Shown: positions 1-22,815 of the stretch, one piece after another
Layout of the letters: the number at the start of each line of letters is the position of its first letter
Position numbering within the stretch: the first letter of the stretch is position 1
NCBI RefSeq assembly: GCF_001598795.1
Contig: NZ_BCZP01000031.1
Location: forward strand, 1-32,000
DNA length: 32,000 nt
Direction of reading: 5' to 3'
Origin: Delftia acidovorans NBRC 14950
GTDB taxonomy: Bacteria; Pseudomonadota; Gammaproteobacteria; Burkholderiales; Burkholderiaceae_C
Program-made: the position numbers and the translations under genes
The notes under the pieces: generated by a model
What the model was told of the DNA's origin: nothing
Database searches by the model: none
What the model saw: only the letters and a program-made list of their open reading frames with translations

Positions 1-1
1 C

Positions 2-259
2 AAGCGGTTTCTGCAGGCCAGGGGAGACGGCGGCCAGCGGCTGTGGCTGCGCTTTTACGACCCGCGCGTGCTGCCTCGCCTGCTGGCGCAGTTCGACCCG
101 GCGCATCTGGGGGACTGGTTCCACGGCCACAGCATCCTCGCCTGCCTGGCACCGCATCCCGAGGGGATCTGGGTCGGCTTGGCGCAGCGCAAGTTTCTGG
201 ACCACGTCACAGGCCTGGCGCGCCTGGACAACAGGCAATGGGAGGTGTCTTCGCCATGA
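2..259 (+). CDS. DUF4123-type T6SS effector adaptor/chaperone, C-terminal fragment (5' end lies off-window)
   Basis: Frame 2 is open from the window edge to TGA at 257-259. The translation ...QRLWLRFYDPRVLPRLLAQFDPAHLGDWFHGHSILACL... carries the RFYDPRVL signature I associate with DUF4123. Codons mostly end in G/C, like the host. The stop overlaps the next start (ATGA at 256-259). Confidence 0.7.
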   Translation, partial: KRFLQARGDGGQRLWLRFYDPRVLPRLLAQFDPAHLGDWFHGHSILACLAPHPEGIWVGLAQRKFLDHVTGLARLDNRQWEVSSP

Positions 260-660
260 TGGAAATTTCAACCCTGGAAATGCAGCGCACGCTGCGCCGC
301 AACCTGGTGCCCAGCGAGGGAGGGATTGCCGCCATCGTGCGGCAGACCTGCCATCTCAGCGAGCAGGATTGGCCGCATGACAGGCTGCTGGCCCATACCC
401 GGCGAGGCCTTGACCGCGCGGTGGGCTGGGGCCTGTCGACGCCGGACGATGTCATCGGCTTCCTGGCCTTGCGCCACCAGTTTGGCGAGCGCTTCGACGA
501 GTTTCCCGCCGTGTGCAAGTTTCTCTCGCGCACCGACCTGCCGTCTGACGGACGCATCCAGCTGATGATGCTTGAACTGCCGATGGGCATCTGGGACGTG
601 GTGCGGCGGCGCACGCCTGCGGGCGAGTCCTCCTCGCCCCTGGGGGGCCCGGGTGCATGA
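256..660 (+). CDS. Hypothetical 134-aa protein between adaptor and toxin (candidate co-chaperone, or detached C-terminal part of the adaptor)
   Basis: ATG at 256 is preceded by the SD-like GGGAGG at 240-245. ATGA overlaps occur at both ends (256-259 and 657-660). The amino-acid composition is balanced, unlike the Arg/Pro/Ala-rich shadow ORFs. I recognise no family. Confidence 0.55.
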   Translation: MMEISTLEMQRTLRRNLVPSEGGIAAIVRQTCHLSEQDWPHDRLLAHTRRGLDRAVGWGLSTPDDVIGFLALRHQFGERFDEFPAVCKFLSRTDLPSDGRIQLMMLELPMGIWDVVRRRTPAGESSSPLGGPGA

Positions 661-1412
661 GCTGCGAGCAACTGGTCCCCGCCTTCATTGCCCTCAATCG
701 CCTGAAGCGGTCCAGGGACCTGTGCAAGGCCGTCGTGCTTGTGGGCTTCAACAAGGTATGCGGCACCCGGGACTTCGACAATGAACTGGACCGCAGGGCG
801 CTGTGCGAGCTGTTTTGCTGCTGCATGACCGGCGGCCTGGGCCAGCGCTGCGTGGCCGGCGTGGTCATGCAGGCCGACGGGTTTGAAGGTTACCGGGGCT
901 ACTACAAGCAGGAAGTGCCGTACCTGAACAAGGCCCCCGTCATGTCGCGCAGGGAGCCCGTACGACCCACGCGCAGCCGGCCTGCGGGCTCGCGCATTCC
1001 CGATGTGGTCGTGGTGAAGAACCCGCGCCTGCCGCCTGTGCTGGACAACGTGCAGCGGGTCTATGAGATGAAGTTTCCGGGAGATGGCTTTTCCAGTGTT
1101 GAAGGGCCAGATGGCATGAATCAGTTTCAGGCATATAGAGATATTTTTGAAGACAAGTTCCTCGAGGAAGCCTTGGACGCCGGAAGCTGTGCGTGCGACT
1201 GGGATGGCGAAAACGCAAACGAAAGTGTGCTGAACCAGGCAACGCGATGGCAGGCCAACAGGGAAAAGGCCATCTCTTTGTCCGAGCGGGTGAATAAGGA
1301 TACGGCGGCGGCGGTCGGGGCTGCGGCTGGTGCGACTGCGCTGGGGCGGGCACTCAGAGGTGTAGGTGCGGTGGGGAGCGCACTCGCAAGAGTCCTCGGA
1401 TTGGCCTTTTGA
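657..1412 (+). CDS. Putative T6SS cargo effector, PD-(D/E)xK / VRR-Nuc-like nuclease toxin (251 aa)
   Basis: The sequence reads ...SRIPDVVVVKNPRLPPVLDNVQRVYEMKFPGDGFSSVEGPDGMNQFQAY..., i.e. PD (999-1004), 20 residues, then E-M-K (1065-1073), then FPGD...Q. This is the restriction-endonuclease-fold catalytic pattern as in VRR-Nuc. The gene sits directly after a DUF4123 adaptor and directly before immunity-type genes. Its start overlaps the upstream stop (ATGA). Confidence 0.65.
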   Translation: MSCEQLVPAFIALNRLKRSRDLCKAVVLVGFNKVCGTRDFDNELDRRALCELFCCCMTGGLGQRCVAGVVMQADGFEGYRGYYKQEVPYLNKAPVMSRREPVRPTRSRPAGSRIPDVVVVKNPRLPPVLDNVQRVYEMKFPGDGFSSVEGPDGMNQFQAYRDIFEDKFLEEALDAGSCACDWDGENANESVLNQATRWQANREKAISLSERVNKDTAAAVGAAAGATALGRALRGVGAVGSALARVLGLAF

Positions 1413-1444
1413 AGCGATGGTTTAGGTACAGCGAAATATGGAGG

Positions 1445-2539
1445 ATGGATATGGCAAAAGACTTCAACAAACCTTTGAGCACCAGAGAACTACAAAAAGC
1501 CACCGTGGCGACGATGGATATTCTCAAGGCTCTGGTATTGCGGAATCGATTTGGACGCGTTTGCGCACGTGCAGGGTGGACCATTGAAATGGTTTTCCAT
1601 AACGGAGATTCATTGGCTGTGCGTGAGCGTGCATGGGAAGTGGTCAATATTTTCTGTGAGGCTGTAGGGACGGAGAAGCTGGTTTATTGGTACGACGGAA
1701 TGCCAGCCATGCTGACCAGTGCGATGGCGCAAAATAAGCTGTCTGCGAAGAAGCAGAAAAGTCTGGATAACCCAAAAGGTTATGCTCTGATCTTTCATAT
1801 GGCCTCGGGTACGCCAAAGCCCCCTGAAGTGTGGGAAAACAATGCACAAGACTTTCGTCTTTACTGTCGTATCAGCAACGACGAAGGGATTTGGATGAAG
1901 GATCGCTATCAATCCCCTGGCATAGGCCCTGCCATGTCTTTCATTCGCATGGCATTTCCTATCTGGTGGATTCTGGATCAACCGCCCGAGCGCAATGTGG
2001 GCAGCCTCACCACCCAGCTAGTGGAGTTGATGCAGCCCTTCTGGGCTATTGCAGGCTGGGGCATTATGCCTGCAGTGGAAGAACGAAATATCGGACCCGA
2101 TGGCAAGGGCCAGCAAGTGCTATATCCCTATCTTCAGAGGTTTCCAGGCTTGAATGCTTTAGGGAGCCACGCCTTGCAGAGTCATGACTTCAACAACGCC
2201 ATGTACAGCGTCAACTGGCTGAGTTTTGTCAGCGATGCATTGCTGGAAAAACTGGGCGGGCGAGAGGCCGTGCGAAAGCAGGTGCAGGCCAGCCAGTATC
2301 TATCTGCCGGGGATGTGGGCAACTGCCTGGGAATTCGTGCAGGAGACTTTCCGGGGCTGGGGGATATGGACCAGGGGCTGACGTTGCCCGCCTTTGGCGA
2401 GGCAGCGCGCCTGCTCAAGCCTGTCCGTGCCAGATCCCGCCTCAACAGCTTCATCGGACCGCCGCCTTCTGGCTCCAATGATGAGCATGCATGGCTGCTG
2501 GCGTGCGATGCCTATATGAGTCGGTTTGATTTGTTCTGA
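1445..2539 (+). CDS. Putative T6SS immunity protein, copy 1 (DUF3396/TsiV-like by size and context; ~364 aa)
   Basis: The long ORF has AT-ending codon usage foreign to the rest of the window. GGAGG lies just upstream of the ATG pair at 1445/1451; the ORF track's TTG at 1409 is less likely. It lies immediately downstream of the nuclease toxin and has a paralogue in the next gene. Confidence 0.8.
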   Translation: MDMAKDFNKPLSTRELQKATVATMDILKALVLRNRFGRVCARAGWTIEMVFHNGDSLAVRERAWEVVNIFCEAVGTEKLVYWYDGMPAMLTSAMAQNKLSAKKQKSLDNPKGYALIFHMASGTPKPPEVWENNAQDFRLYCRISNDEGIWMKDRYQSPGIGPAMSFIRMAFPIWWILDQPPERNVGSLTTQLVELMQPFWAIAGWGIMPAVEERNIGPDGKGQQVLYPYLQRFPGLNALGSHALQSHDFNNAMYSVNWLSFVSDALLEKLGGREAVRKQVQASQYLSAGDVGNCLGIRAGDFPGLGDMDQGLTLPAFGEAARLLKPVRARSRLNSFIGPPPSGSNDEHAWLLACDAYMSRFDLF

Positions 2540-2573
2540 TTTCCGGGGATTATTAAGGAGTGGAGGAGCGGCA

Positions 2574-3668
2574 ATGGATGCAAGACATGACTTCGACTGG
2601 CCATCAGTCAATGAAAAATCGGGCACCAACATGGTGGAAACACTGGATATTCTCAAGGGGCTGGCGTTGCAGGATAGATTTGGATGTATTTGCGCACGAG
2701 CAGGCTGGACCATTGAAATGGTATTTCATGAAGGAGATTCTCTGGCTGTGCGTGAGCGTGCATGGAAGGTGGTTGATCTCTTTTGTGAGGCTGTCGGTAA
2801 AGAGAAGCTGGTTTACTGGCATGATGGTATGCCGGCTAGATTAATCAGTAGTGCGGCGCAGAAGAAACTGACCACGAAGAAGCAAAAGAGCCTGGATAAT
2901 CCTAAAGGTTATGCAATGATGTTTCACCTGGCCTCTGGCTCGCCAAAGCCGCCGGAAGCGTGGACGGATAATGCACAAAACTTTCGTCTTCGCTGTTGCA
3001 TCGCTAACGAAGAGTTCACATGGCTACATGACCGGCACACCTCCCCTGGAATAGGTCCTTCCATGTCTTTCATTCGCATGGCATTTCCCGCGTGGTGGAT
3101 CATCAACCAGCCGCCAGAAAGCAATGTGGGTCGCATTACCTCTCAGGTGGTGGAATTGATGAAACCCTTCTGGGCCATTGCAGGGTGGGGAGTCATGTCA
3201 ACGGTTGAAGAACGAAATATCGGACCTATTAGCCAAGGGCAGCAAGTACTCTATCCCTATTTGCAGCGGTTTCCTGGATTGAATGCCTTGGGCAGCCTTG
3301 CGTTGATAAGCCATGACTTCAACAACGCCATGTACAGTATCAATTGGCTCAGTTTTGTCAGTGATGCCTTGCTGGAAAAACTGGGCGGACGGGAGGCAGT
3401 GCGTAAGCAGGTTGAGGCCAGCCAATACCTTTCTGCCGGAGATGTGGGCAACTGCCTGGGAATTCGTGCAGGAGATTTTCCGGGGCTGGGGGACATGGAT
3501 AAGGGACTGACACTGCCGGCCTTTGGCGAGGCGGCGCGTCTGCTCAAGCCTGTCCGTGCCAAATCCCGGCTCAATGACTTTATCGGTGCCCCGCCATCAG
3601 GATCCAACGACGAAGACGCGTGGCAATTGGCATGCGACGCCTATATGCGTCGTTTTGATGAGTTCTGA
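2574..3668 (+). CDS. Putative T6SS immunity protein, copy 2 (paralogue of 1445-2539; 364 aa)
   Basis: ATG at 2574 is preceded by AAGGAGTGGAGGAG; the track's TTG at 2526 is less likely. It is collinear with copy 1 at a constant +1129 nt offset. The last 143 residues differ from copy 1 at 12 positions by my hand count. Confidence 0.8.
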   Translation: MDARHDFDWPSVNEKSGTNMVETLDILKGLALQDRFGCICARAGWTIEMVFHEGDSLAVRERAWKVVDLFCEAVGKEKLVYWHDGMPARLISSAAQKKLTTKKQKSLDNPKGYAMMFHLASGSPKPPEAWTDNAQNFRLRCCIANEEFTWLHDRHTSPGIGPSMSFIRMAFPAWWIINQPPESNVGRITSQVVELMKPFWAIAGWGVMSTVEERNIGPISQGQQVLYPYLQRFPGLNALGSLALISHDFNNAMYSINWLSFVSDALLEKLGGREAVRKQVEASQYLSAGDVGNCLGIRAGDFPGLGDMDKGLTLPAFGEAARLLKPVRAKSRLNDFIGAPPSGSNDEDAWQLACDAYMRRFDEF

Positions 3669-4202
3669 ATGGAAAGCACCATGAAGCCACAGCCCACCGC
3701 CCCGTTGATGGATGCCGTGTTGCGCACGCTGGGACGGCATAGCCGGCAGGATTACCTGCGCCTGGCTCTGCGCCAGGCGGGATTGAGCGATGCGCAGCTG
3801 CTGAAGATCGATCACGCCCCGCCTTACCCGGTGACATGGGCGGAGAGGGGGCTGGACCTGGTCCTTCAACGCCTGGCCTGGGGCGACATGCCAGGCGCTC
3901 CGACATGGGGCGTGCACAGCGTGACCCTGGATGCGCAGCGCTGGAAGGGGTCCTGGCCCATGGGCCTGGATCCGGAGACCGTGACCGCGCAGGAATTCGT
4001 CAGCCTGCTGGCCCAGGACCAGTCCGAGGCGCTGTGCCTGCCCCAGATGGCCTGCTGCACGACCCGCGGTTTCGACGAGCAGACATGGGCACTGGTGGCA
4101 GTCTTTGGCGGCGCCAGCGGCGCTTTGCAGAATTTGACGATGAGCCGGGTCGGGGAATGGGTGGGGCTTTCCATGCTTCCGGCCTGGCAGGGAGCCGGGT
4201 AG
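3669..4202 (+). CDS. Hypothetical 177-aa protein abutting the immunity pair (possible orphan immunity/accessory gene)
   Basis: The ATG follows the upstream TGA with no gap (ttcTGAATGgaa). GC3-rich host-like codon usage returns abruptly here. Composition is balanced, in contrast to the overlapping Arg/Pro-rich minus-strand ORFs. I recognise no family. Confidence 0.5.
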   Translation: MESTMKPQPTAPLMDAVLRTLGRHSRQDYLRLALRQAGLSDAQLLKIDHAPPYPVTWAERGLDLVLQRLAWGDMPGAPTWGVHSVTLDAQRWKGSWPMGLDPETVTAQEFVSLLAQDQSEALCLPQMACCTTRGFDEQTWALVAVFGGASGALQNLTMSRVGEWVGLSMLPAWQGAG

Positions 4203-4351
4203 CGGGTGGGCCATGTGGGCGATAGGGCCCCGTGGGCGCCAGTTCCGACCGGGCGCCACGGGCATGGCGGCGCGGCTACACTGCGGGCCATTCATTCGAG
4301 GGGCTGGCCGTGGCCGGTTCCTTCCCCCTGTTTTCCCTAGAGATTTCCGCC

Positions 4352-5176
<825 letters not shown>

Positions 5177-5209
5177 GCGCCCGCGCCACAGGCTTTGGAT
5201 GCACGGGCC

Positions 5210-5524
5210 ATGAGACATATCGGTGAACGCATACGCGCCCGCCGCGCCGAACTGGGCATGACCCAGGGCCGGCTGGCCGAGGCCGCAGGCATCACGGCCT
5301 CGGCCGTGTCGCAGATCGAATCGGGGGCCATCCGCACCCTCAAGAACGACACCCTGGCCCGCGTGGCCCTTGCGCTGCAGACCACGGCGCTGGAGCTGAC
5401 GGCCGGGCTGGAAGACGACAACGCGCCGCTGCCCGTGGACGAGCAGCGCCTGCTGGAAAGCTACCGCGCCCTGCCTGCACCGCTGCAGGAGATCGCGCAC
5501 AAGCTCATAAAAGCCTTGCGCTGA
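5210..5524 (+). CDS. XRE-family helix-turn-helix transcriptional regulator
   Basis: MRHIGERIRARRAELGMTQGRLAEAAGITASAVSQIESG... is a classical Cro/C1 HTH. ATG at 5210 is preferred to the TTG at 5195. Confidence 0.85.
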   Translation: MRHIGERIRARRAELGMTQGRLAEAAGITASAVSQIESGAIRTLKNDTLARVALALQTTALELTAGLEDDNAPLPVDEQRLLESYRALPAPLQEIAHKLIKALR

Positions 5525-6637: not shown

Positions 6638-8299
6638 TCACTGACGCTCTTCGACCGCCAGATCCTGCGGATGGCGGATCTGGTGGCGGGCCTCGAAGCT
6701 GGCGCTGGCGCCAGCGGCCAGCGGCTGCTGCCAGGCGATCATGCCGTTGCGGTCGTTCCAGCGCGTGGTGGCCGGCTGCGGGCTGTATTGGGACTGCACG
6801 CGGATCTGCTCGTTGCGCGAGACGGGTGCGGCGTCCACCACCTGCAGTTCGATGGCGCGGTCATGGCGGTTGTCCACCTGGAAGCGCCGCGTGACCTGGC
6901 GTTCGGTGCTGCTGCTGAGCAGGCCGCCGCTGCCCGTGGCCGAGTCCACGGGCAGGTTGCGCACGACCACCTTGTCGTCACGGCCGAAGGACAGGCCCTG
7001 GGCCAGCGCGGTGGCGTTGCCGAAGTCCAGCCGGCCCTGGCCGGCGAAGGCGCCGTCGCGGAACAGGGCCACGGGGCCTGCGGGCCAGACACCGGCCGGC
7101 ACGGCCAGCTGGGCCACCAGGTAGGCGGCCTCTTCCACGGCGGGCGCCGTGCGCGTGAGCAGGGTGGCCGGCAGGTTCTGCGAGCCCAGGGCCAGGGTCA
7201 CGCGCTCGCTGCTGGAGGGCACGCTGATGCGGTAGGGCACGGAGAACTGCGTGGCGTAGGCGGTGTTGAGGCTGGCGACATCGAGCACCGGCAGTTCGGC
7301 GGCCTCGCCGGCCGCCCCGGGCTTGCGGGCGCGCTCCAGCATCATCGCAGGGGCCGCCGGGGCCGGCGCTGGCGGAGGGGCCATGGCGGCCACGGGGCGG
7401 GGCCGTTCCACATCCAGCGTCCAGGGATTGGGCAGGCGCGCCTGCGTGCTGCGCGAAGGCTGGCCCGTGGACAGCAGCAGCTGCACCTGGCTCCAGTCCT
7501 CACCGCTGTTCTGGGCCACCAGGGCCAGGCGTTCGATGGCCACCGTGCCCTTGGCCGGGTCCAACTGGGCGCGGTAGGTGGGCTGCCAGCTCGGGCCGCG
7601 CACCTGGTAGGTGAGCTGCACATTGGCATCGGCCGGGCTGGCCAGTTGCACGGTGACCTTCATCACCTGGGCGTTGCCTGCGCCCGTGCGGTCGCGTTCG
7701 AGCTGCAGCGGCCTGAGCTGCTCCTGCAGCGCCTGCTTTTGCCGCAGGATCTGGTGGGCGCGCAGCGTGTTGCCACGGCTGGTGCTGCGCAGCGCCTCGG
7801 TGGCGGCGCCCAGCTGGCTGGCGGCGGGCAGGGCGGGGGCTTTGGCGTCATCGCCGGGCTTGGCCAGGCCCTGCAGGTAGTCGCCCACGAGCTTGGCGGC
7901 GGACTCGTCGGCCTCCAGCGCGGCCAGCTGGTCTTCCAGCGTGCGGATCTGCTGCTCCAGCGGGCTGGCGCAGGCCTTGGAGGCCAGTTCGCGCGGCTGC
8001 GACTGCAGCTTGTAGTCGCCCAGGCGCACGCCGGCATCGGCGCTGACCTGCAGGCTCTGCGGGTCGATGGAGCCGGGCAGGCACTCGAACACCAGCTGGC
8101 GCGTGGCGGCCGTGATGCGCGCCGTGCGCTCCACCGAGGCCACGCCCGCATACAGGGTGACGCGCGCGATGGGGGCGCGGGCGATGGTGGCTTCCTGGGC
8201 TTGTGCCTGGGCCTGGACCGGGGTGCCTGCCAGCAGGAAGCAGGCGGCGGCCAGGGCCGAGAGGGCGGGCAGGGCGGGCAGGGCGGAGCGTTGAACCAT
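6638..8299 (-). CDS. Secreted DUF4140/DUF4139 (MuiA-like) protein, 553 aa
   Basis: The ATG at 8299 follows AAGGA. A signal peptide is present (MVQRSALPALPALSALAAACFLLAGTPVQAQA). The N-terminal VTLYAGVASVERTARI...LPGSIDPQSLQV resembles DUF4140. A central coiled-coil-like, Gln/Leu/Ala-rich stretch follows. Confidence 0.8.
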   Translation of the reverse strand: MVQRSALPALPALSALAAACFLLAGTPVQAQAQAQEATIARAPIARVTLYAGVASVERTARITAATRQLVFECLPGSIDPQSLQVSADAGVRLGDYKLQSQPRELASKACASPLEQQIRTLEDQLAALEADESAAKLVGDYLQGLAKPGDDAKAPALPAASQLGAATEALRSTSRGNTLRAHQILRQKQALQEQLRPLQLERDRTGAGNAQVMKVTVQLASPADANVQLTYQVRGPSWQPTYRAQLDPAKGTVAIERLALVAQNSGEDWSQVQLLLSTGQPSRSTQARLPNPWTLDVERPRPVAAMAPPPAPAPAAPAMMLERARKPGAAGEAAELPVLDVASLNTAYATQFSVPYRISVPSSSERVTLALGSQNLPATLLTRTAPAVEEAAYLVAQLAVPAGVWPAGPVALFRDGAFAGQGRLDFGNATALAQGLSFGRDDKVVVRNLPVDSATGSGGLLSSSTERQVTRRFQVDNRHDRAIELQVVDAAPVSRNEQIRVQSQYSPQPATTRWNDRNGMIAWQQPLAAGASASFEARHQIRHPQDLAVEERQ

Positions 8300-8337
8300 G
8301 GGCAGTCCTTCTCGGATGAAAGTGGTTTGGCGCGGCG

Positions 8338-9303
8338 TCAGGCCGCAGCGAAGTGGTCGAATGAGGTCCACCGGGGCGCCATGGCCGCTCCGTCCGGGCC
8401 GATCAGCCGCAGGCCGGGCGGGGCCTCGGTGCAGCCGATGCGCGTGACGCGCGTGGCGGTGTCGCGGCCTGCGGCCTGCACGGCATCGCGCCGGTCGGCC
8501 GGGGCCGTGAAGCACAGCTCGTAGTCGTCGCCGCCGGACAGGGTGCACTGGTGCAGCAGGTCGATGGCCAGGGGCGTGTGCCGGCCGGCATCGAGCAGCG
8601 GCGTGACCAGGCGCGTGTCCAGGCTGGCGCCCACGCGGGATTGCTCGAGGATGTGGCCCAGGTCGCCCAGCAGGCCGTCGCTCACATCCAGCGCGCTGCT
8701 GGCAATGCCGCGCAGCGCCTGGCCCAGGGCCACGCGCGGCGTGGGCGCTTCCAGGCGCTGGCGCGCGGCGGCCAGCGTGCCGGGTGGCAAGGTGGTGTGG
8801 CCCAGCAGGGCTTCCAGCGCCAAGCGGGCATCGCCCAGGCTGCCGCTGACCCAGATGTCGTCGCCCGCGCGCGCGCCGCTGCGCAGCAGGGCCTGGCCGG
8901 GCGGCACCTCGCCGAAGACGGTGATGCAGATGTTCAAGGGCCCCTGGGTGGTGTCGCCGCCGACCAGCTCGCAGCCGTGGGCGTCGGCCAGGGCCAGCAG
9001 TCCGGCCGCAAACGCCTCGGTCCAGGCCGCATCGGCGCGCGGCAGGGACAGGGCCAGGGTGAAGGCCAGCGGGCGCGCGCCGCAGGCCGCCAGGTCGGAC
9101 AGGTTCACGGCCAGGGATTTGTGGCCCAGCAGGCGCGGGTCCACGTCGGCGAAGAAATGCCGGCCCTCGACCAGCATGTCGCTGGAGACGGCCAGCTGCA
9201 TGCCCGGCGCCGGGGCGAGCAGGGCGCAGTCATCGCCCACGCCCAGGGCGGCGCGGCGCACGGGGCGCTGGAAGAAGCGGCGGATCAGGTCGAATTCACC
9301 CAC
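8338..9303 (-). CDS. thiL: Thiamine-monophosphate kinase
   Basis: GEFDLIRRFF....LGVGDDCALL......LAVSSDMLVEGRHF...LGHKSLAVNLSDLAA.GA.P....L.LSLP...GGDTT.GPL is the canonical ThiL/AIR-synthase-like pattern. The start is GTG. Confidence 0.9.
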   Translation of the reverse strand: MGEFDLIRRFFQRPVRRAALGVGDDCALLAPAPGMQLAVSSDMLVEGRHFFADVDPRLLGHKSLAVNLSDLAACGARPLAFTLALSLPRADAAWTEAFAAGLLALADAHGCELVGGDTTQGPLNICITVFGEVPPGQALLRSGARAGDDIWVSGSLGDARLALEALLGHTTLPPGTLAAARQRLEAPTPRVALGQALRGIASSALDVSDGLLGDLGHILEQSRVGASLDTRLVTPLLDAGRHTPLAIDLLHQCTLSGGDDYELCFTAPADRRDAVQAAGRDTATRVTRIGCTEAPPGLRLIGPDGAAMAPRWTSFDHFAAA

Positions 9304-9368
9304 GGTGGCGGCTTTCGGATGCGTTTGGCGATCGGGCTATTGTGCTGCGAGGTTCGTGCTGCCCCGTA

Positions 9369-10268
9369 TCAGGTGGTCTCGCCCACACCGGGCCGATGCT
9401 CCAGCGCCAGCGCGTGGAAGGCCTGGGCGGCAGGCGACAGGCTGCGCTGGCGCCTGCGCACCAGGTACAGGTCGCGCCGGCGGTCGGCATCGGCCAGCGG
9501 GCGCGTCACCAGGCCGGGCTGCACGAAGTGGAACAGCGCCAGGGCCGGCACCACGCTGATGCCCAGGCCCGCGCGCACCATGCCCATCACGGTGGCCAGG
9601 TGCTCCACTTCCAGCAAGGTGTTGAGGGGCGGGGCCTGCTCCTGCGATTCCAGGTACTGGCGCACGCTGCTGTGGCGGGCGAGCTGGATGAAGGGTTGGT
9701 CCCGCAGGTCGGCCATGGTTGGCGCGGGCAGCGCTGCCAGCGCATGGTCGGCGCGGCAGACCAGGTGCAGCCGGTCGGCGCAGAACCATTCGGCCTGCAG
9801 CTCCTCGGTGTCGGCGCGGATGGCGGCCAGCGCCAGGTCGGCCTGGCCCGAGGCCACCTGGGCGATGCAGGACTCGGACAGCAGGTCCGACACCTGCAGC
9901 TGTATGCCCGGATGGCGCGCATGGAACAGTGCCAGCACGGGCGGCAGCCAGGCCGCCGCCAGCGAAGGCAGCAGGGCGATGGACACGCGCCCGCGCTGCA
10001 GCGCCGCCGCCTCGCGCAGGCCCTGCACGGCATCGCCCAGGTCGGCGCGAATGCGCTGCGCGGCATCGAGGAACTGCGCCCCCTCCTGCGTCAGCGCCAC
10101 ATGGCGCGTGCTGCGGTCGAACAGGCGCACGCCCACGCCGTCTTCCAGGCCCTTGATCAGGGCGCTGAAGGCCGGCTGCGACAGATGGCAGCGCTGCGCG
10201 GCCAGCGTGAAGCTGCTGAGCTGGGCCAGGGCGATGAAGGCATCGAGCTGGCGGGAGGAGATATTCAT
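9369..10268 (-). CDS. LysR-family transcriptional regulator
   Basis: MNISSRQLDAFIALAQLSSFTLAAQRCHLSQPAFSALIKGLEDGVGVRLFDRSTRHVALT is a LysR HTH, followed by a substrate-binding domain. The gene is divergent from the AtuA-like gene. Confidence 0.9.
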   Translation of the reverse strand: MNISSRQLDAFIALAQLSSFTLAAQRCHLSQPAFSALIKGLEDGVGVRLFDRSTRHVALTQEGAQFLDAAQRIRADLGDAVQGLREAAALQRGRVSIALLPSLAAAWLPPVLALFHARHPGIQLQVSDLLSESCIAQVASGQADLALAAIRADTEELQAEWFCADRLHLVCRADHALAALPAPTMADLRDQPFIQLARHSSVRQYLESQEQAPPLNTLLEVEHLATVMGMVRAGLGISVVPALALFHFVQPGLVTRPLADADRRRDLYLVRRRQRSLSPAAQAFHALALEHRPGVGETT

Positions 10269-17987: not shown

Positions 17988-19955
17988 TCAGGGGCGGAAG
18001 AAACTCAGCGGCGCTGTGCGCAGACGGCGGCGGATGGCCGAATAGATGCGCGAGCGGTCGACTCCGCTGACATTGTGTGCCCTCATCGCAACGCGGAATG
18101 CCAGATAAAAGCTGACAGTGACATTCAACGCGCCATTGACCGGCAGTAGGGCAACCGCCCACCAGAACATGTCGGAGTGCAGCACCTGCCAGCCCAGGGC
18201 CGCCATGGCGGCACCGATCTGGCCTGCCGACAGCGTGACGTGGCGCACCTCCAGCCCCAGGCCGAAGAAGGCCGCGAAAGCGGGCACCAGGCCCAGCATC
18301 ATGCCCAGCGAGACGTTGGCGGCAAAGCCCGAAATGTTCTTGCGCCAGAAATGCGCCCAGCGGTCGGCACGCTTGGCGCCCAGCCAGCGCGTGATGCCGG
18401 GGTTGTAGCGGATCACCGAGTCCAGCCGGCGCAGCACGAACCAGTTCTCCGCCCAACCCGCGATCAGGCTGCTGGCGAACAGCAGCACGCCCGTGAAGGC
18501 CGCGAACAGCGGCGACATGCCCAGCAGACTCAGCGAGTCGAGCACGGCAATCGCATGCGGCCCGTCGATGGGCGTGTGGCCGAACAGCTGGGCATAGCCC
18601 AGCGACAGCAGCAGCACCATGGGCAGCACCACCAGCACGTTGCCCAGCACGGCCGCCACCTGCGAGCGCACCAGGTGGGCGACCTCGTCCACGAACTCCT
18701 CGATGGCCTCGCTGGCGCGCAGGTCCTTGAGCTTGGCGGCCATGGCCGGTGCCGTCATGGCCGGCTGCTTGGTCGCCACCGTGAAGTGCAGCAGCTGGAT
18801 CAGCACAAAGCTGATGGAGTAGTTGATGCCCGCCGCCAGCCCACCCCAGAACGCCGACAGCCCCAGCGCGTAGAGCGCGAACTTCAGCAGCGTGGTGAAG
18901 GCCATCACAAAGCCGCCGCCAGCGGCCTTGGTCGCCATGGACAGGTATTCGCGGCCGGTGCGCGTGATGTAGTGCTCGCCTGTCTCGGCGCTGCGCTCGG
19001 CCACCTTGGCCGCCAGCAGCGAGGTGTTGGTGGACAGCAGCGCGCGCAGGCTGCGCCGCTCAATGCCCACGGACACCAGGTTGGCCAGCAGGTCGGCCGT
19101 CTCGGTGGCGCGGTTGTCGGCCACCAGGCAGTCCAGCAGCCGCCTGACGCGCAGGATGCGCGCGCGCAGCTGGCGCAGGCGGAACACCAGGCCCACCGAA
19201 ATCCCTTCGGACTCGAAATGTGTGTAGACCGATGTCACGGCCGCGCGGCAGGCATCCAGGCGCTCGCGCAGCCGGGCCTCGGCCGCATCGCGCCGGTCAT
19301 TGGTGCGCAGCGCGTGCATCACCTCCACGCGCAGGCTCTCGGCGTCGTGGATCAGGGCGTGGAAGGGCTGGTCGTCGCGCGCCTGCTCGTCCATGCGCAG
19401 GCGCAGTTCGGGCGAAAAGCCCGTGGACAGGATCTGCCCCGTGCAATAGGTGATGGAGCCCAGCAGGCTGTTCTGCCAGAAGCTGCTGCCCTGGCCCTCG
19501 CTGCCGTCGGTCAGCAGCAGTGCGATGCGTTCGAGCAGCGGCGCCTCCAGCGCGTGCAGCCAGCGCGCGTCGAATTCGTCGGGCATGGCCAGCATGAACA
19601 GCTCGGAGGCATCCACCGTCTCGGGCGTGCTGGGCAGCAGCTTGTAGCGTGCGCGCTCGGACAGCTCGCTGAACATGTTGGTGCGCGGCGCAAAGCCGAA
19701 ATCGGCCAGCAGCGCCGTGATGTCCACGGTGTCGATGAAGCGCAGCCACCAGGCATGCAGGCGCTGGCGCACGGCCGGGTCGGCCTCCACGGCCTCCACC
19801 AGCAACTGCACACGCTGCACGGCGCCGTCCACCGACGGCTTGGGCGCGCGCACCCACTCCAGCAGGTGGATCAGCCAGATATGGCGGTGCGCGAGGTCGG
19901 CCTCGGGGTCGAGTGCGGCCAGAAGGCCGGGCAGGTCTTGGGTGATTCGCTTCAT
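17988..19955 (-). CDS. Gcr-type 'site-specific recombinase' family protein; sequence indicates a polytopic membrane protein
   Basis: The N-terminus MKRITQDLPGLLAALDPEADLAHRHIWLIHLLEWVR... resembles the family routinely annotated as site-specific recombinase (Gcr). The C-terminal ~330 aa contain at least 5 long hydrophobic segments. Confidence 0.7.
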   Translation of the reverse strand: MKRITQDLPGLLAALDPEADLAHRHIWLIHLLEWVRAPKPSVDGAVQRVQLLVEAVEADPAVRQRLHAWWLRFIDTVDITALLADFGFAPRTNMFSELSERARYKLLPSTPETVDASELFMLAMPDEFDARWLHALEAPLLERIALLLTDGSEGQGSSFWQNSLLGSITYCTGQILSTGFSPELRLRMDEQARDDQPFHALIHDAESLRVEVMHALRTNDRRDAAEARLRERLDACRAAVTSVYTHFESEGISVGLVFRLRQLRARILRVRRLLDCLVADNRATETADLLANLVSVGIERRSLRALLSTNTSLLAAKVAERSAETGEHYITRTGREYLSMATKAAGGGFVMAFTTLLKFALYALGLSAFWGGLAAGINYSISFVLIQLLHFTVATKQPAMTAPAMAAKLKDLRASEAIEEFVDEVAHLVRSQVAAVLGNVLVVLPMVLLLSLGYAQLFGHTPIDGPHAIAVLDSLSLLGMSPLFAAFTGVLLFASSLIAGWAENWFVLRRLDSVIRYNPGITRWLGAKRADRWAHFWRKNISGFAANVSLGMMLGLVPAFAAFFGLGLEVRHVTLSAGQIGAAMAALGWQVLHSDMFWWAVALLPVNGALNVTVSFYLAFRVAMRAHNVSGVDRSRIYSAIRRRLRTAPLSFFRP

Positions 19956-21768: not shown

Positions 21769-22815
21769 TCAGAAACTGTGGCGCATGCCGAGTTCAGCGC
21801 CTGTGGAGCTGCCGCCCGCAGCCAGTCCGGTGGTGCCGCCATTGAGGCTGAAATTGGCCCCGCCCTTGTTGGTCACGCGTGCAAGGGTTCCATACAGCGC
21901 CGTGCGCCGCGACAGGTTGTGCACATAGCCGATCGCATACCTGTTGGCATCGCTGCCATTGAAGGCCACCGGGCCACGGCGCGAATCGGTGCGCACATAG
22001 GAGGCGCGGATGTAGTTCGCCCCCACGGGCACGGTAAGGCCGACCTGCCAGCGGTCCTCGGAGCCCGCGATGCGGGTTCCATAGGTGCCATAGGGCAGGT
22101 CCTCGCGCTGGAAATACCCCATCAGCTTGGCAAAGCCGAAATCGTAGGAGGCGCCTGCGCCGTATTGCTTGAGCTTGGTGCCCGCAGCATTCACATCGGT
22201 CGAGCCATAGGTGAGCGCCAGGTTCAGAGGACCGTTGTCGTAGGTCAGGCGGCTGCCGAAATGGCGGCCGGCGCTGCTCACGGGGTCTTCGTCCAGGGCA
22301 TACATCACTTCTGCCTGGAAACCGCTCCATTTGGGAGTGAAGTACTGGATGGCGTTGTCGCTGCGGTAGTAGTTCGAGAAGGTGCCAGGCAGGCGGCTGA
22401 TGATGTTGGAGTTTGCCAGGCCGATCACGTTGAACGGGTCGAACTTGGTGGGATTTTGCGCGGCCGGCGTGAAATCGCGGCCCAGGCGCAGCTCGCCGAA
22501 GCCGCCCGCCAAGCTCACCGTGGAGCGGCGCTGGAAGAACTTGCCATTGGCGTTTGTCGTGCCGGTGTCGGCATAGAGGTCTGACTCCAGCCAGAACTCG
22601 GCCCTCAATCCGCCGCCCAGATCCTCGGTGCCGCGAAAGCCAAACCGGCCCGATGACAGCCCGCTGTTGTTCATGGTCATGTTGCTGGGCAGATCGCTGT
22701 TCTTCACGTAGCGCCCATTGACGTCAACGATGCCGAACAGGGTGATGGATGACTGCGCGCTGGCCGCCAGCGAAATGACGGGCAGTGCGGCCGCCAATAT
22801 ACGATTGAATTTCAT
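21769..22815 (-). CDS. Outer-membrane general porin (Burkholderiales OmpC-like)
   Basis: Signal peptide, then AQSSITLFGIVDVNGRYV...GFRGTEDLGGGL.A.F.LE. There are alternating beta-strand patterns and a C-terminal ...ELGMRHSF ending in Phe. Confidence 0.9.
   Translation of the reverse strand: MKFNRILAAALPVISLAASAQSSITLFGIVDVNGRYVKNSDLPSNMTMNNSGLSSGRFGFRGTEDLGGGLRAEFWLESDLYADTGTTNANGKFFQRRSTVSLAGGFGELRLGRDFTPAAQNPTKFDPFNVIGLANSNIISRLPGTFSNYYRSDNAIQYFTPKWSGFQAEVMYALDEDPVSSAGRHFGSRLTYDNGPLNLALTYGSTDVNAAGTKLKQYGAGASYDFGFAKLMGYFQREDLPYGTYGTRIAGSEDRWQVGLTVPVGANYIRASYVRTDSRRGPVAFNGSDANRYAIGYVHNLSRRTALYGTLARVTNKGGANFSLNGGTTGLAAGGSSTGAELGMRHSF

Follow-up and report, generated by a model that had tools for sequence, protein, structure and literature searches.

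A vgrG-linked type VI secretion locus of Delftia encoding a putative VRR-Nuc-like cargo toxin, two TsiV-family genes and a DUF4123 adaptor apparently divided into two lobes

The window analyzed here, a stretch of 32,000 nucleotides (nt) at the start of contig NZ_BCZP01000031.1 of Delftia acidovorans NBRC 14950, opens within a gene cluster for a type VI secretion system (T6SS) cargo effector. The toxin of this cluster, a protein of 251 amino acids (aa), is encoded identically on KN046795.1 (assembly GCA_000741825.1; locus L001), where the upstream 10 kb were read; the context considered is thus 20.7 kb around the toxin together with the 32-kb window. Close homologues of the toxin are annotated as Delftia tsuruhatensis. 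The complete gene order is vgrG, PAAR, a short DUF4123 gene (N-terminal lobe, or N-lobe, of an adaptor), an open reading frame (ORF) of 134 aa (C-terminal lobe, or C-lobe), the toxin, two immunity genes of the TsiV family (TsiV-a and TsiV-b) and an ORF of 177 aa. VgrG has 792 aa (L001 6253-8631, Phage_GPD E 6e-106) and is followed by a PAAR protein of 103 aa (8677-8988, E 8e-25) with a short C-terminal tail of ~20 residues, ending RCLAEAAQSGAAFVSAMED. The complete DUF4123 gene (9043-9603) encodes 186 aa, and its match to PF13503 (E 1.6e-33, domain residues 18-137) spans profile positions 1-117 of 119. Its 3' end, positions 2-259 of the window, had been read as an adaptor fragment in a preliminary description made from the letters of the window; the translation contains RLWLRFYDPRVLPRLL and ends in SSP before the TGA at 257-259, and the fragment alone also matches PF13503 (E 2e-8), with NCBIfam adding a weak match to Tla1 and nothing beyond. 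The same description had proposed a T6SS cargo-effector module with vgrG or PAAR to be expected upstream; both are present, directly upstream of the DUF4123 gene, and therefore the T6SS assignment stands. What lies inside the window is the 3' portion of an orphan Delftia vgrG island, and it is likely that this island arms the T6SS spike with a small antibacterial nuclease, using a split adaptor and two TsiV immunity genes.

Re-examination of the reading frames found the six ORFs, two ATGA overlaps of stop and start codons and the PD-x20-EMK motif of the toxin where the preliminary description had placed them. The overlaps (256-259 and 657-660) chain three genes together, and the overlap between small ORF and toxin is also seen in Paracidovorax avenae, where genes 7603-8004 and 8001-8747 share 4 nt. 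The two genes described as paralogues are 78% identical and encode 362 and 364 aa from the ATG codons proximal to their ribosome-binding sites: GGAGGA lies 6 nt 5' of the TsiV-a ATG, and a GGAGG-type site precedes each paralogue. The further ORF does abut them, starting directly after the stop codon of the second one. The ORFs of this locus are more than chance reading frames, because conserved homologues exist for every one of them, G+C content at third codon positions (GC3, 0.55-0.85) is above that at second positions (GC2, 0.44-0.51), and the same gene order recurs in D. tsuruhatensis, a Comamonas metagenome-assembled genome (MAG), Curvibacter and Paracidovorax; the VgrG-PAAR-DUF4123 context is likewise kept in four genera. 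Scanning positions 1-5300 for promoters and terminators gave only the background level, with no internal promoter for the immunity genes and no terminator after 4202. The features are collected in Table 1.

Table 1. Features of the effector locus at the 5' end of the window (positions in the window)
Feature	Position	Strand	Remarks
DUF4123 adaptor gene, 3' end, 85 codons	2..259	+	N-terminal lobe only, TecT-like; complete product 186 aa
Small ORF, 134 aa	256..660	+	predicted detached C-terminal lobe of DUF4123 adaptor (co-TecT type)
Cargo toxin, 251 aa	657..1412	+	putative VRR-Nuc-like PD-(D/E)xK nuclease
TsiV-family (DUF3396) immunity gene, copy a, 362 aa	1451..2539	+	Pfam PF11876
TsiV-family immunity gene, copy b, 364 aa	2574..3668	+	Pfam PF11876
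Trailing ORF (orf177), 177 aa, or 173 aa from ATG 3681	3669..4202	+	no family match
Low-GC hypervariable segment	1000..3700	n/a	second half of toxin gene and both immunity genes

The small ORF between the DUF4123 gene and the toxin has zero matches in Pfam, NCBIfam and PADLOC. Its close family comprises 33 clusters of proteins of ~134 aa with an invariant GERFDEFPAV motif, and it accompanies the toxin in Delftia, the Comamonas MAG, Curvibacter and Paracidovorax. AlphaFold2 (AF2) models the protein as a bundle of six helices with a predicted local distance difference test (pLDDT) score of 87, all-alpha like the C-lobes known from DUF4123 adaptors (PMC11582642); compared with the PDB by Foldseek, the model returned nothing at E<=0.001, and a profile search of the PDB also returned nothing. 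An exhaustive profile search of 1.84 billion representatives, at a threshold of E<=1e-3, gave 202 matches, mostly free-standing proteins of 110-140 aa. Ten of these matches are larger proteins of 303-334 aa in which the alignment is confined to the ~100 residues at the C-terminus, and a PF13503 DUF4123 domain stands at the N-terminus of every one of them; the DUF4123 protein of Delftia, at 186 aa, is much shorter than these full-length relatives. Along the full-length DUF4123 protein P0114 (334 aa), residues 24-145 align with the 186-aa protein (33% identity, E 9e-20) and residues 230-321 with the small-ORF profile (hhalign probability 96.6%, E 6e-10). Because both genes map collinearly on P0114, the adaptor is predicted to be encoded as two coupled lobes; that is, judging from sequence homology, the 186-aa and 134-aa products are two separately encoded lobes of one DUF4123 adaptor.

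Adaptors of the DUF4123 family pair a conserved alpha/beta N-lobe for binding the spike with a C-lobe, variable and all-helical, for binding the effector (PMC11582642). The same paper describes TecT and co-TecT of Pseudomonas aeruginosa as a split DUF4123, and records that co-TecT was originally named a co-chaperone. The Delftia data give sequence-level evidence that small ORFs of the co-TecT type are detached C-lobes of DUF4123 adaptors. The split arrangement is modular, as is shown by a remote relative of the small ORF that neighbours an unrelated effector: its metagenomic locus encodes PAAR (196 aa), DUF4123 (168 aa), the small protein (126 aa) and an unrelated protein of 500 aa. Moreover, every cargo locus (Delftia, Comamonas, Curvibacter, Paracidovorax) encodes PAAR, DUF4123 and the small ORF, and none of the three occurs where VgrG itself carries the toxin domain as a fusion, as in Sorangium. 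The fused loci lack the adaptor genes and toxin residues 1-47 together, which is the pattern predicted by a loading role for both. More than 200 C-lobe clusters at 50% identity, free-standing and fused, could help to annotate the effectors encoded after short DUF4123 genes.

Two further loci with small-ORF relatives were observed. On a metagenome contig (L014 5001-7682) a remote relative (E 1.5e-8) lies directly upstream of a gene for a 759-aa protein with an amino-oxidase domain, and no DUF4123 gene is called beside it; the 759-aa protein may be another type of effector served by the small-ORF adaptor lobe. At the Curvibacter gracilis locus (L005 5746-7559) the second TsiV copy matches in two frames and is possibly frameshifted; it is followed by an ORF of 243 aa, whose first ~130 residues are a second small-ORF homologue joined to an unrelated tail of ~110 residues, and then by a membrane protein of 144 aa. 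This arrangement may be what is left of another effector module.

The toxin carries the motif P115-D116, x20, E137-M138-K139-F-P-G-D143 and then Q156, and D116, E137, K139 and Q156 are invariant in an alignment of 22 sequences. Three parts can be distinguished: residues 1-47, specific to the cargo form; residues ~48-190, with a Cys-rich helix and the nuclease core; and a Gly/Ala-rich hydrophobic tail (~214-251). The AF2 model (pLDDT 84.7) orders the elements as helix (63-76), strand (83-85), strand (117-120), strand (132-136) and helix (156-167), and the four invariant residues are located on this core. No PAAR or PAAR-like domain was found in the toxin by Pfam search, PAAR being the separate gene for 103 aa. 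The toxin had been called unusually small, a remark that does not hold: its length only reflects a cargo protein without fused PAAR, Rhs or VgrG, and its domain of ~145 aa matches TseV3(132-281). All 22 members of the family match VRR_NUC (PF08774) weakly, the best with E 5e-4, always below the gathering score, so that of the VRR_NUC match expected for this protein the match itself was found and its significance by Pfam standards was not. In a genome scan, residues 48-190 proved 35-45% identical to domains at the C-terminus of VgrG proteins in Sorangium; such a VgrG-fused domain is present in at least eight loci of this genus, each followed by a TsiV gene, and it lacks the first 47 residues of the Delftia toxin. 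One of these VgrG proteins scores 33.8 bits on VRR_NUC, above the cut-off of 23.8 bits, and thereby links the Delftia toxin transitively to the VRR-Nuc family. The nuclease of VRR-Nuc style read earlier from the letters is thus borne out by the invariant D...ExK...Q core, the weak VRR_NUC matches and the homology to the above-cut-off Sorangium domains: by these criteria the 251-aa protein is a VRR-Nuc-like PD-(D/E)xK toxin and a putative DNase. The domain is predicted to be delivered by T6SS, for which the VgrG fusions are taken as independent proof.

Six cysteines are conserved between Delftia and Sorangium; C50, C54, C56 and C65 precede the core and C178-x-C180 follows it. The hydrophobic C-terminal tail is conserved in the cargo and in the VgrG-fused forms. 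Cysteine staples that bind metal (Zn or an iron-sulphur cluster, Fe-S) are found on the PD-(D/E)xK cores of AddB, Cas4 and Dna2. By analogy, the six cysteines of the toxin may form a Zn or Fe-S metal staple that clamps the core, and the tail may help the nuclease to cross the inner membrane of the prey. As an observation on Sorangium itself, loci L006-L013 (e.g. L007 4913-7591) hold several evolved VgrG proteins with the VRR-Nuc toxin domain, and strain So ceGT47 has three such loci, two of them only ~7.7 kb apart.

Both paralogues downstream of the toxin belong to Pfam PF11876 TsiV, formerly DUF3396, in agreement with the immunity type named in the preliminary description: TsiV-a scores 79.9 bits (E 2.7e-22) and TsiV-b 74.4 bits (E 1.3e-20), with a cut-off of 25 bits, and both match weakly PDB 7drg, which is PA0821, the TsiV of P. 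aeruginosa. Delftia and Curvibacter have two TsiV copies, and TsiV-b is the most strain-variable gene of the locus. Tandem pairs are known from Salmonella bongori, where TsiV1.1/1.2 and TsiV2.1/2.2 adjoin TseV1 and TseV2, respectively, and where TseV2 is neutralised only by TsiV2.1 (PMC9635880).

The vgrG and TsiV genes of two P. avenae strains differ in state. One strain (L021 5746-6632) has a degraded upstream vgrG, of which only the ends match, with stops in frame, and an intact TsiV; the other (L022 4266-6632 and 8775-9849) has an intact vgrG and a TsiV that matches in three separate frames and is uncalled as a gene. Either reciprocal decay or sequencing error would account for this pattern.

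A sharply bounded variable segment takes in the toxin gene's second half together with both immunity genes. G+C content falls to 0.42-0.64 between ~nt 1000 and 3700, compared with ~0.68 in the flanks, and this dip coincides with the hypervariable segment: DNA identity to the D. tsuruhatensis island L002 is 98-99% in both flanks and 68-87% across 1000-3600, with only 68-74% across 2600-3200, within TsiV-b. Within the toxin, 17 of the 20 substitutions relative to L002 fall in residues 145-196, and residues 1-98 are identical. D. tsuruhatensis NBRC 16741, whose genome also has the full island L002, carries an orphan copy (L003 6991-10012, NZ_BCTO01000013.1) of the toxin and two TsiV genes. This copy shares exactly positions 647-3668 with the window, from 10 nt before the toxin ATG to the stop codon of the second TsiV gene; vgrG, PAAR, the adaptor genes and the trailing ORF are missing, and the small ORF accordingly lies outside the duplicated toxin-immunity cassette. 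The first 98 residues of the orphan toxin have two substitutions relative to the window (positions 4 and 92). The hypervariable segment shows the usual pattern of joint diversification of toxin surface and immunity genes, and with its sharp bounds and two immunity genes it is a tidy case for studying how toxin and immunity co-diversify.

The trailing ORF has no match in Pfam, NCBIfam, PADLOC or the PDB, the last searched also by profile, and Pfam scans of its homologues, the divergent one of P. avenae included, gave nothing. Because M5 is invariant and homologues start there, the true start of the ORF is probably ATG 3681. Its GC3 is 0.83, host-like. A homologue comes after TsiV in D. tsuruhatensis (L002) and likewise in the Comamonas MAG (L019), where identity is 70% and the downstream flank differs; in P. 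avenae a homologue of 264 aa (L021 10648-11442; 31% identity, E 3e-19) lies two genes after TsiV. We considered that the ORF might be chromosomal flank, given its host-like G+C content and its absence from the orphan cassette, and dropped this idea in view of the homologues behind TsiV in Comamonas and Paracidovorax, which have different flanks. The trailing ORF belongs to the island and lies outside the toxin-immunity cassette; most likely it is an orphan immunity or accessory gene, the former being the most economical guess. Its alternative role as a functional partner of the effector, that is a third immunity or regulatory component and no orphan or unrelated gene, is possible but doubtful. 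The ORF abuts the last TsiV gene with no terminator or promoter detected between them, and its place at the island's 3' end is kept in Delftia, Comamonas and Paracidovorax, with different downstream flanks; against a partnership, it is absent from the orphan cassette, Curvibacter and Sorangium, it is not part of the low-GC hypervariable segment and shows 99% conservation among Delftia strains whose toxin and immunity genes vary, and in P. avenae another ORF lies between it and TsiV.

Some results weigh against the interpretation of the locus as an island delivering a nuclease guarded by two immunity genes. The toxin itself reaches only 12.7 bits on VRR_NUC (E 0.14) against the cut-off of 23.8 bits, and its confident AF2 model found nothing in the PDB at E<=0.001 by Foldseek, which leaves motifs and transitive homology as the basis for assigning a nuclease; sequence searches of the PDB, with the single sequence and with a profile, gave chance-level matches only, to hydrogenase and PolD small subunits. 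P. avenae has one TsiV gene, and the second copy is therefore not required by the system. The low VRR_NUC score and the Foldseek result would also suit a protein that is no DNase, having a PD-(D/E)xK-like fold with another activity (e.g. an RNase) or acting on membranes through the hydrophobic tail, whose conservation in both cargo and VgrG-fused forms points the same way. Set against the invariant catalytic core and the Sorangium link, we consider this quite unlikely, and retain the putative DNase.

The small ORF, for its part, could be a chaperone or stabiliser specific for the toxin, or an extra antitoxin that holds the nuclease inactive before loading, and no part of an adaptor. Its strict co-occurrence with the toxin family among close relatives, the translational coupling to the toxin, the lack of a known domain and the first name given to co-TecT would agree with such a role, which is nevertheless very improbable: the small ORF is homologous to the C-lobe of full-length DUF4123 adaptors, its remote relatives adjoin short DUF4123 genes with unrelated effectors, and it is missing both from the orphan cassette of toxin and TsiV, hence is not needed for self-protection, and from the loci where the toxin is fused to VgrG. 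That toxin and TsiV make up an independent toxin-antitoxin or anti-phage module (PADLOC candidate PDC-M20) merely lying beside T6SS genes is scarcely credible, although the matches of TsiV-a to PDC-M20B (E 7e-14) and, weakly, of the toxin core to PDC-M20A (E 0.01) and the position of the orphan cassette away from any vgrG might suggest it. Translation of the toxin is coupled to that of the adaptor genes, four genera keep the VgrG-PAAR-DUF4123 context, the Sorangium loci have this domain covalently joined to VgrG, and the adaptor of the main locus could still load the orphan toxin, whose N-terminus is near-identical; adaptor coupling and VgrG fusions led us to reject the module reading. PDC-M20 may itself be a toxin-immunity pair of the VRR-Nuc/TsiV type.

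For a T6SS island with a split adaptor, the following mechanism can be proposed by analogy with TecT/co-TecT/TseT/PAAR4 and Tap. The N-lobe would dock on the spike, most likely on the C-terminal tail of PAAR or on VgrG, and the C-lobe would grip the toxin, probably through the residues 1-47 that VgrG-fused versions lack. After firing, the toxin would reach the cytoplasm of the prey and cut DNA by means of a divalent metal held at D116, E137 and K139, and in the producer a TsiV protein would block its DNA-binding face. The variable face of the toxin (residues ~145-197) and the immunity genes would be swapped jointly in the form of a recombination cassette; of the two TsiV copies, the second would probably protect against a sibling allele or be a diverging spare.

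The layout had been thought to match none described, and this does not hold. The P. aeruginosa operon PA3904-PA3908 has the order paar4-tecT-co-tecT-tseT-tsiT (PMC10586262; PMC11582642; Burkinshaw et al. 2018), and the Delftia locus follows it (PMC10586262, PMC11582642), as the TsiV pairs follow those of S. bongori (PMC9635880). Both loci share the succession of PAAR, short DUF4123, small co-adaptor ORF, PD-(D/E)xK cargo nuclease and immunity gene of DUF3396 fold; both have the adaptor split in two ORFs, and the C-lobe homology of the Delftia small ORF corresponds to the role assigned to co-TecT. The likeness to TecT, co-TecT and TseT is one of gene order and of the roles described for them. 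The toxins differ, TseT being of the Tox-REase-5 type and outside the VRR-Nuc clades (PMC9635880) and the Delftia toxin VRR-Nuc-like; the Delftia locus also has vgrG directly upstream, two immunity genes and an extra trailing ORF.

TseV1-4/TsiV1-4 of S. bongori and TseV (PA0822)/TsiV (PA0821) of P. aeruginosa are likewise T6SS-associated toxins of the VRR-Nuc type with a D...ExK motif and an adjacent TsiV (PF11876) gene, and in S. bongori the immunity genes are also arranged in tandem pairs (PMC9635880). However, TseV1-3 of S. bongori bear a PAAR-like domain at the N-terminus, which the Delftia toxin lacks, and the latter is an adaptor-dependent cargo below the Pfam cut-off for VRR_NUC, with a hydrophobic tail and, at its N-terminus, a pair of helices rich in Cys; the TseV paper mentions neither cysteines nor a transmembrane segment (PMC9635880). 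The full-length DUF4123 adaptors Tap1, Tap6 and Tap14 (PMC11582642) have the same alpha/beta N-lobe and variable all-alpha C-lobe that recognises the effector, in one chain, whereas the Delftia lobes are separate polypeptides coupled by the ATGA overlap. The Sorangium VgrG fusions share with Delftia the toxin domain, the six cysteines, the hydrophobic tail and a downstream TsiV gene, and differ in covalent fusion, in the lack of PAAR, DUF4123 and small ORF and in having a single immunity gene.

The core of the preliminary description, an antibacterial effector/immunity locus, is supported by the T6SS context, the VRR-Nuc-like toxin and the TsiV genes, as a prediction. Its suggestion of new accessory components fares less well: most are not new, the small ORF being a C-lobe and paired TsiV genes being known, and the trailing ORF alone is of an unassigned kind. 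The locus adds a further instance to the systems known from Pseudomonas and Salmonella, is no new kind of system and changes no current concepts; what distinguishes it from PA3904-PA3908 and from TseV/TsiV is the combination of a VRR-Nuc-like toxin with a split DUF4123 adaptor, a linked vgrG, the trailing ORF, and the six cysteines and tail of the toxin. We think it unlikely that the cysteine staple and membrane-crossing tail define an uncharacterised subclass of T6SS VRR-Nuc toxins and that, separately, the trailing-ORF family is a new accessory or immunity component. The toxin family, uncharacterised, small, adaptor-loaded, VRR-Nuc-like and found mainly in Comamonadaceae, is an addition to the catalogue of T6SS effectors, and the occurrence of one domain both as cargo of a split adaptor and as a VgrG fusion is a natural experiment for mapping the determinants of loading.

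Outside the island, just downstream, the plus strand of the window encodes a UPF0149/SEC-C-motif protein (YecA-like; 4352-5176), for which D. tsuruhatensis has a 100% identical counterpart, and, at 5195-5524, a small HTH_3/HTH_31 regulator; the G+C content of both genes is host-like. A second G+C dip, at ~21-23.5 kb, coincides with a Gram-negative porin gene on the minus strand (21769-22815, Porin_4, E 1e-69) and with no second toxin island. A protein of the PF10136 'site-specific recombinase' family (E 1e-231) is encoded at 17988-19955, also on the minus strand.

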